From positions 3,122 through 39,141 of the forward strand of contig CAZIHL010000004.1 of assembly GCA_964538815.1 (NCBI GenBank): a stretch of DNA of 36,020 nt, given 5' to 3'. Position 1 is the stretch's first letter, and every line of letters starts with the position of its first letter. The position numbers and the translations under genes are program-made. Positions 8,315 through 35,972 of this stretch are shown here, piece by piece. The notes below the pieces were generated by a model, which saw nothing but the letters and a program-made list of their open reading frames with translations, did not search any database and was not told the origin of the DNA. The stretch comes from an uncultured Candidatus Saccharibacteria bacterium. GTDB taxonomy: Bacteria; Patescibacteriota; Minisyncoccia; Phycocordibacterales; UBA5272.

Positions 8315-8788
8315 ATGAGTACAGAAATAATTAAAGAATTAAGAGAAGAAACAGGTCTTTCTCTTGCTGAAATAAAAAAAGCATTAGAATTTGCAGATGG
8401 AGATAAAACTAAAGCTTTAGAGATTCTTTTTGAAAAAGCAAAAGAAGTAGCCGCTAAAAAAGGTGAAAGAGAGCTTGGTGCTGGTGTTGTAGGAGTATAT
8501 ATATATGGCGGTGGAACCGCAGCTGCAATGGTGGAGCTTATGTGTGAGACAGATTTTGTGGCTAAAAATGAAGAATTTAAAGCTCTTGCGAATGATATAG
8601 CATTTCATATTGTAGCTATGAATCCTACTTCCATAAATAATGAAAATGGAGAAAGTGAAGATACAGCATTACTTAAGCAATCTTTTATAAAAGATCCTTC
8701 ACAAACTATTGAACAAAAAATAGAAGCTGCGATACAAAAATTTGGCGAAAATACACAAATAAGAAAGTTTGTTAGATATAGTATCTAG
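8315..8788 (+). CDS. tsf: Translation elongation factor Ts (short form, 157 aa)
   Basis: N-terminal UBA-like LREETGLSLAEIKKALEFADGD and the core MCETDFVAKNEEF motif. It follows rpsB. Confidence 0.85.
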   Translation: MSTEIIKELREETGLSLAEIKKALEFADGDKTKALEILFEKAKEVAAKKGERELGAGVVGVYIYGGGTAAAMVELMCETDFVAKNEEFKALANDIAFHIVAMNPTSINNENGESEDTALLKQSFIKDPSQTIEQKIEAAIQKFGENTQIRKFVRYSI

Positions 8789-8827: not shown

Positions 8828-9244
8828 ATGCAAATTTTTATATACATTACAATCTCAATATTATTTTTTATAATATCTTTTCTTATTGTAAGAGTTAGAA
8901 TGTCATATTTAAATACATATCCAGAAAAATATAATCCATCATATGATGGTCATGAAGTATTTTTAAATAAATTTTTTGCTATTATCAGAATCTTTATAAG
9001 AAGATTTTATGCGGGCTTAAAAATAGTATATAGGAATATATTGCATTGGTGGGTAATGCTTGTAGCAAAAGTATCTACTTATTCTGATAAAATTTATGCA
9101 AAGAGTAGAAATAAATTTATGGAAGAAGTAGTAAAAGATAAAAGAGCTGTACCTCATTTTTGGAATCATCTTAAAAAATACAAAAGAGAAATAGATGAAG
9201 AAAATGAAATAAAAAAAGAAGAAGAATCCGGAAAAGAAATATAA
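8828..9244 (+). CDS. Hypothetical membrane-anchored protein
   Basis: 138-aa ORF with an N-terminal TM helix and a charged C-terminus. No family recognised. Confidence 0.45.
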   Translation: MQIFIYITISILFFIISFLIVRVRMSYLNTYPEKYNPSYDGHEVFLNKFFAIIRIFIRRFYAGLKIVYRNILHWWVMLVAKVSTYSDKIYAKSRNKFMEEVVKDKRAVPHFWNHLKKYKREIDEENEIKKEEESGKEI

Positions 9245-9250
9245 AAATAT

Positions 9251-9278
9251 TTGAAAAAAGTATTTTTTATGATATAAT
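9251..9278 (+). promoter_or_regulatory. Promoter TTGAAA-16 nt-TATAAT with TGa extension
   Basis: TTGAAA at 9251-9256 and TGaTATAAT at 9270-9278, 24 nt upstream of the pseudo-tRNA module. Confidence 0.55.
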
Positions 9279-9301
9279 TAGAAGATAAGGTTAAAGATAT
9301 T

Positions 9302-9410
9302 GCCACTTTAGCTCAGTTGGCATGAGCGTAGCGAGATTGTATACTGACAACGGTTTACAAAACCTACGATAGTTTTTGAAAAAGAGCTGTAAAATTACCA
9401 AGTAAATATT
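9302..9410 (+). other. Chimeric pseudo-tRNA module: first 20 nt of tRNA-Thr, shared linker, altered anticodon-arm hairpin, T-run, spacer
   Basis: 9302-9321 is identical to 9411-9430. It then diverges in the D-loop into CATGAGCGTAGCGAGATTGTATACTGACA, followed by ACGGTTTACAAAACC (tRNA has ACGGTTTTGTAAACCGT) and TTTTTGAAAAAGAGCTG. There is no T-arm and no 3' acceptor strand. Confidence 0.8.
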
Positions 9411-9486
9411 GCCACTTTAGCTCAGTTGGTAGAGCAACGGTTTTGTAAACCGTAGGTCGTCAGTTCGAGCCTGACAAGTGGCTCCA
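9411..9486 (+). tRNA. tRNA-Thr (anticodon TGT), CCA encoded
   Basis: Manual cloverleaf: GCCACTT/AAGTGGC acceptor, GCTC/GAGC D-stem, ACGGT-TTTGTAA-ACCGT anticodon arm, GTCAG-TTCGAGC-CTGAC T-arm, T-CCA. Confidence 0.95.
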
Positions 9487-9491
9487 AGCAT

Positions 9492-9532
9492 AAAAATACT
9501 GGGTGGTGCCGAAGGCATCACCCAGTATTTTT
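9492..9532. terminator. Long bidirectional terminator hairpin with a GCC-GAA-GGC apex
   Basis: AAAAATACTGGGTGGTGCC-gaa-GGCATCACCCAGTATTTTT is a ~19-bp stem flanked by A and T runs. It lies between tRNA-Thr and a convergent CDS. Confidence 0.85.
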
Positions 9533-9577
9533 AATATTCTTATTTCGCAAGCTTATTTTTTATGATATTTTTTTATC

Positions 9578-12653: not shown

Positions 12654-15149
12654 ATGAAATATTTACACAGCTGGTTACAAGAATATGTTGAAGACAAAAT
12701 TCCAAAAGGAGAGGACTTTGTAAAAGGTGTTTCAACTGATGCTTTTGAAGTGGAAGAATATTTGGAAATAGAAAATAAAATAAATAAAGAAAAAACAGAC
12801 TGGGTTTACGATTTAAACGTTTTACCAAATCGTAGCCATGACGCACTTTCACATTATTATATGGCGAAAGAAATTGCTACTATTTTTAATTTAAAATTAA
12901 AAGATTTAAATTTATTGAGTAGTGAATGGAAAAAAGATTTTAAAATTAAAAAAAATAATGAGGATTTTATAAAAATAAGTGATACAAAATCTTGCAGTAG
13001 ATTTATGGGTGTAAAAGTGAATGGGGTAGCCGTGAAAGAAAGTCCAGAATTTATAAAATACCGCTTAGAAGCAATAGGACAAAAAAGTATAAATAATATT
13101 GTAGATATTACAAATTACATACAATTTTCTTTTAATAAACCAATGCATGCGTACGATGGTGATTTAGTCTCAGGATTCTTAGAAGCAAGATTGGCAAGAC
13201 CGGCAGAACCAATAGATTTGTTAGAACATAAAGCAAATATTAGAGGAGGATTAGAAGTAAACAAAAGTGAAACTAAATTATTGGATGATAAAACTCTCGT
13301 AATCGCTGATGAGAAAAATGTTTTAGCGCTTGCGGGGATAAAAGGCGGTAAATTTTCTGGTATTACCGAGAATACAAAAAATATAATAGTAGAAAGTGCA
13401 AATTTTAATTCAAATTTAATAAGAAAGACTTCTCAAAAGTATAATTTAAAAACAGATTCTAGTAAAAGATTTGAAAATGGTATAGCTGATGATCTAGTAG
13501 AAATTGGACTGATTGAAACTTTAAAACTTTTAAAAGATTTTGCTGATGCTGGTAATATTGAGATAGGCGAAATAGTAGATAATTTTCCAAATGAGAAATT
13601 AAGCGAGTGGAAATATAAAGTATCTGTTTCTATGTCAGAAATAAATAAAGTTTTAGGAACTAATTTAAATAAAGACCAAGTAGAAAATATTTTTGAAAGA
13701 TTTGGATTTAAATATAAATATATTTCTACAAAAGAAAATATTGAAAATTTAATAAAAGAAGTAATTGGAAAACCATATAAAAACCCAAGTAGCATGAGAG
13801 CTGACGCACCGAACGCTTTTTCATGCTCTTCTTTAATTTCATATTTATATGAAGGAGTGTATATGCCATCTATATCGATAGATAAATATTTGTATACAAA
13901 AGATAAAAGTATAGAAAAAGACAATTTAAAATTTGGTGATTTGGTATTTTCGACTGGTGATGGAAAAGTTTATCTTGAGGGAGTTGAGTATAAAAGAGGT
14001 GAGAAGGTGGAAGGTGGAGTCGATCATCTTGGTATTTATGTAGGCGATGGAAAAATTTTACATTCTTCAAGATATTTAGAAAAGGGTACAGAGATAGAAT
14101 CATTTGAAGATTTTATAGAGAAAAAGAATGGAGAAGGTGAAAGAAAAATTGTAGGATATGGAAGAGTCTTAGAAAGTCTTGATGAAGAGAGATTTGTAGT
14201 AGAAATCCCAGCTGAAAGATTGGATTTAAGAATAAAAGAAGATATTATTGAAGAAGTTGGCAGAATATACGGATTAAATAATATTAAAAGCATATTACCA
14301 ATAATAAATAAAAAACCAAGCCAGAATAAAGATTTAATAGAAGAATATATTATTAAAAATATTTTATTAGAAAACGGATTTAATGAGGTAATGAATTATT
14401 CATTACGAAATAAGGGAGATATACAAATAATAAAATCTGTAGCTCAAGATAAAAATTATTTAAGAAATAATCTTTCAGACGGAATTCAAGAAACCATACA
14501 AAAAAATATTTTCAATATGCCACTTTTAAATATTAATGAAATTAAAGTATTTGAATTTGGTAATTGTTTTAAATTAAATGAAAATGGAGAAGAGATTGAA
14601 TGGAGAAGTTTATGTATTGGTATAGATGATGGAAAGAAAAATAAAAATTATACGGATTTAAAAAATAAAATATTATCAGAAATAAAAGAAAAGTTAGTAT
14701 TAGAAAGTATAGATTTTATAGAACATAAAAACGAAAAACAAAAAGAAAATAGATTTGAAATCAATCTTACAAAATTGTTAAATCAAACTAGGAAATCTAT
14801 TTTGAAAACAGATGATTTTATTTTTCCAATAAGGATCGATAGTATTGATTTTAAATATAAATCTTTTGCGTCAACCCCTTTTATAGTCCGCGATATTGCT
14901 TGTTGGGTAAATGGAAGCACAAATGAAGAAGATATAGAAAAAATAATCAGAGAAAATATTTCACCACTTTGTATAAAATTAAATTTGTTTGATAAATTTG
15001 AAAAAGAAATAGATGGAGTTAAAAAGAAATCTTTTGCATTTAGACTTATTTATCAGGATAAAGAAAGAACATTAACTGACGAAGAGGTAAATATTGAAGC
15101 AGATAGGATTTATAAGGCTTTGGAAGAGAGAGGTTATGAAATAAGGTAA
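12654..15149 (+). CDS. pheT: Phenylalanine--tRNA ligase beta subunit with an NlpC/P60-like insertion
   Basis: B3_4 motifs (INNIVDITNYIQFSFNKPMHAYD), the B5 start (VSMSEINKVLGTNL) and the B5 end (IPAERLDLRIKEDIIEEVGRIYGL), plus a C-terminal FDX-ACB-like domain. The ~155-aa insert contains NAFSCSS...HLGIYVGDGKILHSS. Confidence 0.9.
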   Translation: MKYLHSWLQEYVEDKIPKGEDFVKGVSTDAFEVEEYLEIENKINKEKTDWVYDLNVLPNRSHDALSHYYMAKEIATIFNLKLKDLNLLSSEWKKDFKIKKNNEDFIKISDTKSCSRFMGVKVNGVAVKESPEFIKYRLEAIGQKSINNIVDITNYIQFSFNKPMHAYDGDLVSGFLEARLARPAEPIDLLEHKANIRGGLEVNKSETKLLDDKTLVIADEKNVLALAGIKGGKFSGITENTKNIIVESANFNSNLIRKTSQKYNLKTDSSKRFENGIADDLVEIGLIETLKLLKDFADAGNIEIGEIVDNFPNEKLSEWKYKVSVSMSEINKVLGTNLNKDQVENIFERFGFKYKYISTKENIENLIKEVIGKPYKNPSSMRADAPNAFSCSSLISYLYEGVYMPSISIDKYLYTKDKSIEKDNLKFGDLVFSTGDGKVYLEGVEYKRGEKVEGGVDHLGIYVGDGKILHSSRYLEKGTEIESFEDFIEKKNGEGERKIVGYGRVLESLDEERFVVEIPAERLDLRIKEDIIEEVGRIYGLNNIKSILPIINKKPSQNKDLIEEYIIKNILLENGFNEVMNYSLRNKGDIQIIKSVAQDKNYLRNNLSDGIQETIQKNIFNMPLLNINEIKVFEFGNCFKLNENGEEIEWRSLCIGIDDGKKNKNYTDLKNKILSEIKEKLVLESIDFIEHKNEKQKENRFEINLTKLLNQTRKSILKTDDFIFPIRIDSIDFKYKSFASTPFIVRDIACWVNGSTNEEDIEKIIRENISPLCIKLNLFDKFEKEIDGVKKKSFAFRLIYQDKERTLTDEEVNIEADRIYKALEERGYEIR

Positions 15150-15188
15150 AAATACTGGGTGTCGCTGAAGGTGTGGTCTCGTATTTTT
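15150..15188 (+). terminator. Degenerate copy of the 9492-9532 hairpin (AAATACTGGGTG...GAAGG...TATTTTT)
   Basis: It shares the 5' arm AAATACTGGGTG and the GAAGG apex with the tRNA-Thr terminator. The 3' arm is partly mismatched or wobble-paired, and TATTTTT follows. Confidence 0.5.
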
Positions 15189-15201
15189 AAACTTTTTAAA
15201 A

Positions 15202-27848: not shown

Positions 27849-27902
27849 TTTTTATAATATTGAAACCAACTTTGTAAAAGACTTTTAAAAAAAGTTTTTT
27901 TT

Positions 27903-27911
27903 TGATATTAT
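27903..27911 (+). promoter_or_regulatory. Extended -10 element TGaTATTAT
   Basis: 19 nt upstream of tRNA-Ile(TAT). Confidence 0.45.
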
Positions 27912-27929
27912 ATATTTGTTATTTAATAA

Positions 27930-28003
27930 GCTCCCATAGCTCAGTTGGTTAGAGCACACGGCTTATATCCGTGGGGTCCTAGGTTCAAGTCCTAGTGGGA
28001 GCA
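27930..28003 (+). tRNA. tRNA-Ile (anticodon TAT), no encoded CCA
   Basis: GCTCCCA/TGGGAGC acceptor, GCTC/GAGC D-stem, CACGG-CTTATAT-CCGTG anticodon arm, CTAGG-TTCAAGT-CCTAG T-arm, discriminator A followed by CAT. Confidence 0.85.
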
Positions 28004-28005
28004 CA

Positions 28006-34071: not shown

Positions 34072-34148
34072 GCGCGATTAGCTCAGCTGGCTAGAGCATT
34101 CGACTGATACTCGAAAGGTCCTTGGTTCAAGTCCAAGATCGCGCACCA
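34072..34148 (+). tRNA. tRNA-Ile (anticodon GAT), CCA encoded
   Basis: GCGCGAT/ATCGCGC acceptor, GCTC/GAGC D-stem, TTCGA-CTGATAC-TCGAA anticodon arm, CTTGG-TTCAAGT-CCAAG T-arm, A-CCA. Confidence 0.95.
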
Positions 34149-35564: not shown

Positions 35565-35591
35565 AAATCTTTTGCAAATAAAAAGAATTTT

Positions 35592-35600
35592 TGTTATAAT
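35592..35600 (+). promoter_or_regulatory. Extended -10 element TGtTATAAT
   Basis: About 18 nt upstream of the first pseudo-tRNA module. Confidence 0.5.
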
Positions 35601-35617
35601 TATTTAACAATAAATAT

Positions 35618-35670
35618 TTCGCGACCGCTCAATGGTAGGAGCGTAGCGAGAATAATTAAAAACAAAATAT
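35618..35670 (+). other. Short pseudo-tRNA module: D-arm of an unidentified tRNA (GCTCAATGGTAGGAGC), shared linker GTAGCGAGAATAAT, leader AAAACAAAATAT
   Basis: Read directly. The linker start GAGCGTAGCGAGA is identical to that of the tRNA-Thr module at 9324-9336. Confidence 0.7.
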
Positions 35671-35785
35671 TCCGTGGTAGCTCAGCGGCAAGAGCGAAGC
35701 GAATATAAATGACAGTTGCGCCAACTGCGACTTTTAAGAAAAGAGTTGGTTGAAATTAAAATCGTAAAAATTGAAAACAAAATAT
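35671..35785 (+). repeat. Pseudo-tRNA-Asn module, copy 1 (115 nt)
   Basis: The first 18 nt equal the tRNA-Asn 5' end. It continues as CAAGAGCGAAGCGAATATAAATGACA, hairpin CAGTTG-cgc-CAACTG, CGACTTTT, and GAAAAGAGTTGG...AAAACAAAATAT. Confidence 0.85.
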
Positions 35786-35897
35786 TCCGTGGTAGCTCAG
35801 CGGCAAGAGCGCGAATATAAATGACAGTTGCGCCAACTGCGACTTTTAAGAAAAGAGTTGGTTGAAATTAAAATCGTAAAAATTGAAAACAAAATAT
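35786..35897 (+). repeat. Pseudo-tRNA-Asn module, copy 2 (112 nt)
   Basis: Identical to copy 1 except for a 3-nt AAG deletion in the linker (GAGCG-CGAAT). Confidence 0.85.
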
Positions 35898-35972
35898 TCC
35901 GTGGTAGCTCAGCGGTAGAGCAGTTGGCTGTTAACCAATTGGTCGCAGGTTCGATCCCTGCCCACGGAGCCA
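35898..35972 (+). tRNA. tRNA-Asn (anticodon GTT), CCA encoded
   Basis: TCCGTGG/CCACGGA acceptor, GCTC/GAGC D-stem, GTTGG-CTGTTAA-CCAAT anticodon arm, GCAGG-TTCGATC-CCTGC T-arm, G-CCA. Confidence 0.95.

Follow-up and report, generated by a model that had tools for sequence, protein, structure and literature searches.

A conserved pseudo-tRNA module in the leader of a patescibacterial tRNA-Thr gene and its possible origin and role

The tRNA-Thr unit and its module

The window analyzed here, a stretch of 36,020 nucleotides (nt) of contig CAZIHL010000004.1, contains five tRNA genes according to ARAGORN and Rfam, among them tRNA-Thr(UGU) at 9411-9486 and tRNA-Asn(GUU) at 35898-35972. The subject of this study is a module of 109 nt (9302-9410) that directly precedes tRNA-Thr and reads as a remodeled partial duplicate of the tRNA-Thr unit, made up of a pseudo-tRNA and a copy of the leader. 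Coordinates are those of the window, and all features lie on its plus strand unless stated otherwise. The tRNA-Thr gene is a functional one by its prediction, with an encoded CCA end and an Rfam score of 71.8 bits, whereas the module is not called as a tRNA: ARAGORN finds only 9411-9486, and the tRNA family RF00005 gives no match to the module even at E<=10. The main sigma70-type promoter of the unit, P1 (TTGAAA-16-TATAAT with a TG extension; 9251-9278; 11/12 in the promoter scan), lies upstream of the module and has an equivalent in all orthologous loci. An intrinsic terminator with a 20-bp stem and a T tract, found by a terminator scan, follows the tRNA at 9491-9533. With P1 before the module and the terminator past the tRNA, the module therefore lies within the tRNA 5' leader. 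The same scan found no intrinsic terminator or attenuator on the plus strand inside the modules of either the tRNA-Thr or the tRNA-Asn locus. A 75% identical copy of the terminator hairpin stands after pheT (15147-15198), which suggests that the two belong to a common terminator sequence family.

The window was compared with related contigs labeled L006, L007, L009, L012, L035 to L037, L039, L040, L042, L044, and L046 to L048. A search for contigs encoding the 138-amino-acid (aa) open reading frame (ORF) that adjoins the Thr module returned no match; orthologues of the tRNA-Thr locus were reached via EF-Ts instead, and those of the tRNA-Asn locus via RsmI.

The 5' end of the module lies in the first copy of a direct repeat (9297-9320), which consists of ATATT and nt 1 to 19 of tRNA-Thr and returns without a mismatch (5 + 19 nt) at 9406-9429. 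A preliminary description of this DNA had given 20 nt of the tRNA as repeated, in addition to the ATATT; the latter is indeed there, but the tRNA identity ends at 19 nt, position 20 being C in the module and T in the tRNA. The description had also let the copy break off straight after the GG of the D-loop. Direct reading of the sequence reveals instead a complete D-arm-like hairpin at 9311-9327 (GCTCA at 9311-9315, TGAGC at 9323-9327), with the loop GGCA where the tRNA has GGTA. This hairpin forms in the minimum free energy (MFE) fold of the whole precursor, not when the module is folded alone. Some hairpin at the D-arm position is possible in every module, in differing registers. The linker that follows, CATGAGCGTAGCGAGATTGTATACTGACA (29 nt; 9321-9349), is common to the modules at tRNA-Asn, and the GCGTAGC within it fits the GCGNAGC motif of DNA mini-hairpins (PMC13037366).

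Downstream of the linker lies an inverted anticodon arm, ACGGTTTACAAAACC (9350-9364), which is the exact inverse of tRNA-Thr nt 29 to 43 and is invariant in three lineages. It is complementary in 15 of 15 positions to the tRNA sequence at 9439-9453 (GGTTTTGTAAACCGT), such that the stems stay the same while the 7-nt loop stands in reverse complement. The arm consequently displays ACA at the place of TGT, as had been noticed before; what has been inverted, however, is not the central triplet only but the whole loop, within a 15/15 inverted repeat. A repeat finder further showed 9343-9351 to be complementary in 8 of 9 positions to the 5' strand of the tRNA-Thr T-stem (9456-9464). Linker and arm are predicted to fold together into a long imperfect hairpin (9327-9368) with an outer stem CGUAG/CUACG, an inner stem UUGUAUACUG/CGGUUUACAA, and the loop ACAA at 9347-9350 (MFE, -11.7 kcal/mol; z = -2.1). 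It is followed by a second, U/A-rich hairpin (AUAGUUUUU/AAGAGCUGU; 9369-9390), which is present in the window and in L006 and replaced in L046. The tail of the module (9379-9410) ends in AAATATT and is a copy of the ancestral tRNA-Thr leader. Both the T-arm and the 3' acceptor strand are absent from the module, in agreement with the preliminary description.

Likewise, the near-consensus sigma70 site TTGGCA-17-TATACT reported at 9317-9345 was recovered by the promoter scan, at 10/12, although the stronger P1 stands upstream of the module. This candidate promoter, P2, extends across the D-loop and the linker, and its hexamers and spacing are identical in the window, L006, and L046. The change from GGTA to GGCA lifts the match of its -35 element from 4/6 to 5/6, while the linker provides the exact 17 nt and TATACT. 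As far as sequence goes, P2 thus has the near-consensus hexamers and a spacer within the 16 to 18 nt of a sigma70 promoter. L006 and L046 also carry TGGCAC-N5-TAGC, which we take to resemble a sigma54 site and which is not kept in the Asn modules of L037 and L039. An ATG at 9322 opens a frame of 16 codons, but L006 and L046 have ACG at this position, and a small peptide was rejected.

Relatives and the tRNA-Asn modules

A neighbor-joining tree of three flanking genes has the topology ((window, L046), (L006, L048)), L009, (L047, L012), with bootstrap values of 199 to 200 out of 200. The Thr module is present in the window, in L046, and in L006 (also L007), that is, in three of the four lineages of one clade. 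The orthologous loci of L048, L009, and L012 lack it and have clean empty sites, in which P1 is followed by a short leader and then the tRNA. A single gain at the base of the four-member clade and one loss explain this pattern. Since the module is found again in the assemblies of three relatives (L006/L007 and L046), it is real and not an assembly error. Past the module, L006 (11197-11304 of that contig) has a tRNA-Thr gene with no encoded CCA, behind which the sequence turns GC-rich and stays so until the contig stops, in contrast to the otherwise AT-rich genome; an integrated element may begin here, or two pieces may have been joined in assembly.

The Thr module of the window and that of L006 are identical at 108 of 109 positions, with one substitution and a 1-nt indel. 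Window and L006 lie on opposite sides of the deepest split of the clade, and elsewhere they have diverged considerably: tsf is 85% and the adjacent ORF 79% identical, identity over the flanking genes is 80%, and 30 to 40% of third codon positions are changed. The 57 nt directly upstream of the module contain 15 mismatches (26%) and 36 gap columns, with a 33-nt indel. At a divergence of p = 0.2, the probability of at most one substitution in 109 nt is 8e-10. Compared with L046, the window differs at 7 of the first 66 nt of the module (P = 0.001 at the third-codon rate), and the last 44 nt are replaced. Across the three lineages, nt 20 to 65 of the module, comprising the linker and the inverted arm, have only three variable positions, namely, nt 22, the first base of the P2 spacer, and nt 46 and 47 in the predicted tetraloop (ACAA, which is GUAA in L046).

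Related modules precede tRNA-Asn. The preliminary description had placed them at 35618-35897; they are present there, although the boundaries had to be redrawn. Behind the P1 of this unit (TTGCAA-17-TATAAT with TG; 35572-35600) lies Mod0 (35618-35670), a truncated older module with a different acceptor-like strand, which ends in GAGCGTAGCGAGA and a shortened tail. The module M1 (115 nt; 35671-35785) consists of tRNA-Asn nt 1 to 18, the linker, a hairpin CAGTTG-CGC-CAACTG, and then sequence copied from the -35 region of the promoter and from the leader. M2 (112 nt; 35786-35897) equals M1 except for a 3-nt deletion within GAGCGAAGCGA, with 105 nt 100% identical, and abuts the functional tRNA-Asn(GUU), which is called by ARAGORN and Rfam. 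As assembled there are thus 2.5 module copies, the number of two full copies resting on short-read assemblies. Mod0 and the start of M1 are confirmed in L035, an independent assembly of the same species whose contig breaks within the repeat; L036 is another contig of the window species (1,319 nt). Among the other Asn loci, L037/L044 and L039/L040 each carry a single homologous, diverged module, while L042, from the same genome as L006, has no module, its leader being just 37 nt long and similar to the module tail. In L039 (5097-6629) and L040 (1305-2837), on the minus strand, the gene for a 510-aa large serine recombinase (Resolvase and Recombinase domains) reaches into the 3' end of tRNA-Asn, with a DNA methylase gene behind it; the arrangement suggests an element that has integrated at this end of the tRNA gene.

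The homology of the Thr and Asn modules, already proposed in the preliminary description, stands: their non-tRNA parts align over the full length with a score of 38 against 19.0 +/- 3.4 for shuffles (local alignment z = 5.6; none of 2,000 shuffles as good), and GAGCGWAGCGA occurs three times in the window where 0.08 occurrences are expected. The claim that the acceptor strands match their own tRNAs holds as well, as each module has the acceptor strand and the 5' strand of the anticodon stem of its own tRNA. The Asn modules are complementary to their tRNA over 9 nt only. In an alignment of seven modules, GGCA in the loop and a linker that follows RARCG-KAG-YGAGA are found in all of them, including Mod0 and the Asn modules of L037 and L039. 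Because these shared derived features are too numerous for independent origin, the linker has a single origin and now resides in pseudo-copies of two, perhaps three, different tRNAs. It may have spread by ectopic conversion via the nearly identical D-arms or by a copying mechanism since lost. An internal duplication of the D-arm was rejected as its source, the alignment being no better than shuffles (z = 0.2 to 1.2).

Part of the similarity may have a simpler basis. Around their -35, the promoters of tRNA genes in the window (27878-27912, 35726-35760, and 9243-9280) have in common a palindrome of an A-run and a T-run, such as GACTTTTAAAAAAAGTTTTTTTTTGATATTATA ahead of tRNA-Ile. The palindrome may account for some of the Thr/Asn likeness, and the likeness behind the hairpin (TTTTnGAAAAAGAG) may come from both modules having copied similar -35 regions. 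The hairpin of the Asn modules is followed by TTTT, an arrangement not retained in L037 and L039.

In 204 kb of DNA from relatives, the linker was found only at these modules. Species-representative genomes, JGI metagenomes, and IMG/VR were scanned for GAGCGWAGCGA-N(1-6 or 0-8)-TATANNTGACA, and IMG/VR also for two further linker patterns; in the latter, a scan could only expose a viral source of the linker. No further tRNA-linked module emerged from these scans. The genome and metagenome scans also missed the modules of the window and of L006, despite their matching the pattern; hence these collections do not contain the organisms in question, and the negative is weak. What did match were coincidences in coding sequences or another widespread small hairpin motif. 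Likewise, nothing relevant was found in the literature on the linker sequence or on tRNA-leader pseudo-tRNAs in Patescibacteria. The widespread motif occurs in metagenome contigs of unrelated organisms (L020, L004, L022, L024, and L025) as a variable stem with the loop GAGCG(A/T)AGCGA, followed by TTATAATTGACA or TATAnnTGACA; presumably it is the 'RFARND'-type repeat of many hypothetical proteins. In L020 (1560-1800, minus strand), the -35 of a tRNA-Met promoter coincides with one copy, and just past the tRNA, where the region read ends, lies a copy of the hairpin by itself, GTCATTGCGAGCGAAGCGAAGCAA. L001 (3950-4260, minus strand), from a high-GC metagenome-assembled genome (MAG), has an 18-nt duplicate of the tRNA-Pro 3' end between tRNA-Pro(GGG) and tRNA-Ala, preceded by several AGCGAG-type repeats including GAGCGAAGCGAG-CTATACGTGACA; it looks like a scar of the attachment-site (att) type.

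Origin, possible role, and rival explanations

The preliminary description had concluded that the module is not simple decay of a duplicated tRNA. That there is more to it than decay is borne out by a Thr module conserved far above neutral sequence and homologous to the Asn modules, but a duplicated tRNA as the origin, which that description had set aside, is indicated by the tails, the unit length, and the phylogeny. The Asn tail of the window matches the Asn promoter and leader of L042 (z = 8.0), comprising the -35 region, part of the spacer and, after a 16-nt deletion that removes the -10, the leader. The tail in L046 matches the -10 region and leader of its own P1 (z = 6.0), and L006 has a second, diverged copy of the leader upstream of its module that is homologous to the Thr tail (z = 4.2). 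The Thr tail of the window gave no match to its own P1 (z = -0.6), and the Asn tail also resembles the promoter of tRNA-Ile(UAU) (z = 3.5). At every locus the module unit is 109 to 115 nt long, close to a tRNA of 75 to 76 nt plus a leader of 30 to 40 nt (for Asn, 75 + 37 = 112). The flanking direct repeats consist of lineage-specific leader and 10 to 19 nt of tRNA, with lengths of 19+5, 18+12, 10+19, 11+9, and 11+14 nt. Given that the tails copy the local promoter and leader, that the units have this length, and that one gain was followed by losses, the modules are best understood as partial tandem duplications that were later remodeled, the duplicated part being some promoter and leader sequence and the 5' two-thirds of the tRNA.

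Tandem duplication with random loss is a source of tRNA pseudogenes best described in animal mitochondrial genomes. As in those cases, the modules represent a head-to-tail duplicate of gene and spacer in which one copy is functional and the other has lost arms and cloverleaf, and they disappear by deletion. In contrast to them, the module is located on a bacterial chromosome, includes promoter and leader sequence, contains an inverted arm, shares its linker between two tRNA loci, and has a conserved core. Nor does the Thr module exhibit unconstrained decay (1/109 versus 26 to 40%), whereas the Asn module is near neutral between L037 and L039. The inverted anticodon arm, for its part, has the signature of hairpin inversion by template switching, since its loop is exactly reverse-complemented between unchanged stems (15/15; TGT to ACA). 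Template switching at inverted repeats is documented as a source of mutations in which loops or spacers are inverted (PMC8794818, PMC8604942). As the inversion possibly reaches the 5' strand of the T-stem (8/9), the event may have been an inverted duplication rather than a flip in place.

How could such a remnant have been put to use? Most likely, the change of the D-loop from GGTA to GGCA together with the linker would create P2 as an additional sigma70 promoter, from which transcription would begin near 9350-9353 to give a structured leader with the inverted arm at its 5' end. In transcripts from either promoter, the inverted arm could form 15 bp with the anticodon arm of the tRNA, and in those from P1 the duplicated acceptor strand might in addition compete for the tRNA 3' strand. 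Either pairing would slow or gate maturation by RNase P until the leader is removed. In keeping with this model, folding of the whole precursor (MFE, -60.3 kcal/mol; z = -3.5) predicts pairing between the acceptor strand of the module and the 3' strand of the tRNA, as well as a 15-bp duplex of the inverted arm and the anticodon arm, and leaves the T-arm normal. The gain of co-folding over separate folds amounts to -9.1 kcal/mol in the window, -6.1 in L006, and -9.8 in L046, compared to about -2 for shuffled modules, and is reached by 3, 6, and 1 of 100 shuffles, respectively. Pairing within the precursor may thus act as a brake on maturation by RNase P.

Taken together, we favor, with a probability of roughly 0.5, the reading that the Thr module is a clade-specific, vertically inherited, remodeled partial tandem duplicate of the tRNA-Thr unit that has been kept as a promoter/leader element in cis. 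That selection has retained the module, as an element serving the tRNA gene in cis, is suggested by the near-invariance of linker and inverted arm and also by the direct repeats of 24 to 30 nt at its ends; without selection, a repeat so flanked should be deleted easily, as it was in L048.

A good deal weighs against this reading. The module is dispensable, having been lost in L048, and the Asn module is missing from L042, while L046 has had the 3' 44 nt of its Thr module replaced. P1 is intact in every lineage; P2 is consequently unneeded for transcription and at most an addition. The Asn modules have no equivalent of P2, with a best -35 match of 2/6 at the right spacing and just a 9/12 site in the tails in the promoter scan, and the 17-nt spacer of P2 is itself almost invariant, which is more than a mere promoter would call for. 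The Asn modules of L037 and L039 are 90% identical, compared to 94% for the adjoining rsmI, which is close to neutral, and their folding gain with tRNA-Asn is not significant (reached by 5 to 13 of 100 shuffles). No in-register covariation was seen among the seven distinct module sequences, which are too few for a strict analysis and differ in D-arm register. In L006 an anticodon-stem pair of the tRNA has undergone a compensatory change from C-G to U-A with the module unchanged, so that the pairing is not backed by covariation. That the modules of the window and L006 are nearly identical is at odds with the gene tree, which puts the window nearer to L046; this discordance fits a relaxation specific to the L046 lineage but also a recent transfer between lineages. 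The linker common to the Thr and Asn modules stays unaccounted for by the duplication model. Finally, both P2 and the leader structure are predictions.

Many of these points would be expected if the module were functionless debris, a drifting partial duplication in which the identity between window and L006 stems from recent exchange or from chance variation in rate. The patchy presence with clean losses (L048, and L042 for Asn), the replaced 3' part in L046, the decayed outermost copy Mod0, the slightly faster change of the Asn module than of the adjacent gene, the conflict with the gene tree, and the missing covariation all agree with drift. Yet we consider it somewhat unlikely, because one substitution in 109 nt contrasts with 26 to 40% at nearby noncoding and third-codon sites (P < 1e-9) and because three lineages vary at only three positions of nt 20 to 65. 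An exchanged tract would also have to match the exact boundaries of the module, as the 57 nt upstream have the 26% mismatches and the 33-nt indel and the tRNA downstream differs at three positions, and the flanking repeats should, in the absence of selection, have led to quick deletion. An improbable alternative, also among the candidates of the preliminary description, is that of an integration scar or a miniature nonautonomous mobile element with the 5' part of tRNA genes as its target, the linker as its scaffold, and the repeats made upon insertion. Direct repeats do flank the non-tRNA part, one linker is found in modules of two or perhaps three tRNAs (Thr, Asn, and Mod0), copies are tandem at Asn and near-identical in genomes 20% diverged, and tRNA genes do serve as integration sites, as illustrated by the recombinase at tRNA-Asn in L039/L040 and the foreign GC-rich DNA past tRNA-Thr in L006. 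The repeats, however, are of variable length and made of lineage-specific local promoter/leader sequence, which the tails copy too, the distribution fits one gain and losses, and the linker is limited to the modules in the 204 kb of related DNA. The scans of sequence collections yielded no further module, though they say little about relatives. Terminal inverted repeats, as in miniature inverted-repeat transposable elements or insertion sequences, are lacking, the flanking repeats measure 20 to 30 nt, and there is no recombinase or transposase in the window.

Fragments of tRNAs at att sites usually represent the 3' part of the tRNA. Such fragments arise from integrating genetic elements as att-site duplications (PMC9897764), and the module resembles them in being a partial copy identical to part of the adjoining tRNA, in organisms in which tRNAs are integration targets (L039/L040). 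They flank an element that encodes an integrase, however, whereas the Thr module repeats the tRNA 5' part, with only about 85 nt between the repeats that contain no ORF and consist of rearranged tRNA sequence and local promoter/leader DNA, and no recombinase is encoded in the window.

Two further readings concern RNA function. The preliminary description had proposed a leader RNA that pairs with the tRNA, for which the thermodynamic prediction speaks in the case of Thr and covariation and the lack of significance for Asn do not; its other proposal, a new noncoding RNA family, is conceivable only as a clade-restricted cis element. Extended, these ideas would give the clade a whole family of pseudo-tRNA leader RNAs encoded in cis, built on one scaffold that is copied between tRNA genes and controlling maturation of the cognate tRNA through a 'super-cloverleaf.' The scaffold would comprise the GGCA D-loop, the GAGCGWAGCGA linker, and a hairpin together with tRNA-specific acceptor and anticodon-stem segments, and it would act via competition of acceptor strands and the antisense arm. 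We regard this reading as unlikely. Still more doubtful, and in our view very improbable, is an independent small RNA acting in trans, an anti-tRNA or decoy that is freed by RNase P and binds mature tRNA-Thr via the 15-nt complement. The complementarity to nt 29 to 43 is perfect, the conserved core is structured and has its own promoter-like site, and in E. coli, pieces cut from the spacers of tRNA precursors can serve as RNA regulators (the 3'ETS-leuZ sponge). The target, though, is a closed stem-loop in a folded, modified tRNA, no terminator separates the module from the tRNA, the Asn modules offer only 9 nt of complementarity, and the L006 module did not track the change in its tRNA.

With respect to known regulatory arrangements, the cis promoter/leader element that we favor is reminiscent of P1 and P2 of the E. 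coli rrn operons, the tandem promoters of stable RNA operons. Here, too, two sigma70-type promoters would lie 60 to 120 bp apart before a stable RNA gene, but the candidate P2 of the module is built from a pseudo-tRNA D-loop and the linker and has no Asn equivalent. T-box leaders come to mind because the module hairpin exposes ACA, the cognate codon, and might touch the tRNA. Unlike them, the module precedes a tRNA gene rather than a gene for an aminoacyl-tRNA synthetase or amino acid metabolism, and the Asn modules display at most 3 nt of codon. A T-box riboswitch was rejected, as there is no T-box sequence, no terminator/antiterminator, and no Rfam match (gathering threshold or E<=10). More generally, Rfam returned no family match for the modules under either threshold, apart from a subthreshold hit to YrlA/Y RNA (RF02553) that was rejected at 24.3 bits versus a threshold of 69; its span (9344-9466) takes in most of the tRNA-Thr gene, to which the score is owed. 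Arrays of the TIGR type are found in parasitic bacteria and in phages of these. Their units measure about 36 nt, with two spacers of about 9 nt set between two alternating repeats of 8 to 12 nt, and they stand beside a Nop-domain Tas gene (PMC12045711). With units of 109 to 115 nt and no Nop-domain protein among the scanned ORFs of the window, a reading of the modules as tigRNA or box C/D-like RNA was rejected as well.

Genomic setting and wider meaning

The neighboring genes of the window include rpsB, a short tsf, several aminoacyl-tRNA synthetase genes, gyrB, rsmI, and type IV pilus genes, and the best homologues of its EF-Ts and RsmI come from MAGs labeled Candidatus Nomurabacteria, Paceibacterota, or Patescibacteria. 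The window is therefore core genome of a Patescibacteria (Nomurabacteria/Paceibacteria-like) organism. No integrase, recombinase, transposase, reverse transcriptase, or Nop-domain protein was detected among the scanned ORFs. Some further features deserve mention. EF-Ts (8315-8788) has just 157 aa, a length shared by all close relatives. A tRNA-Ile with the anticodon UAU (27930-28004) lies beside tRNA-Ser(GGA), and tRNA-Ile(GAU) is also present (34072-34148). In bacteria AUA is mostly read by a lysidine-modified CAU tRNA, and an isoleucine tRNA with UAU is uncommon. The beta subunit of phenylalanyl-tRNA synthetase (12654-15149) has a match to an NlpC/P60 peptidase domain at aa 385 to 473 (E = 4e-9), between its B3/4 and B5 domains, which is weak or faint in the orthologues of L009 and L012.

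In conclusion, the module belongs with the tRNA pseudogenes that arise by tandem duplication and, unusually well conserved in the Thr lineage, was probably co-opted as a promoter/leader element, a genuine family of pseudo-tRNA leader regulators being the minority reading. If its conservation reflects function, a bacterial tRNA pseudogene would have been reused as a regulatory part of its parent gene, with a promoter made from a D-loop and a leader antisense to its own tRNA, in a type of host with a minimal genome, little known regulation, and tRNA genes that seem to be single-copy (the window has one for each anticodon). Furthermore, the inverted arm is a clean natural case of hairpin inversion in tRNA-derived sequence. 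For annotation, the module is a warning that tRNA-like fragments beside tRNA genes are not always att scars. The presence of one linker in the modules of two tRNAs could point to an unrecognized process of copying between tRNA loci.

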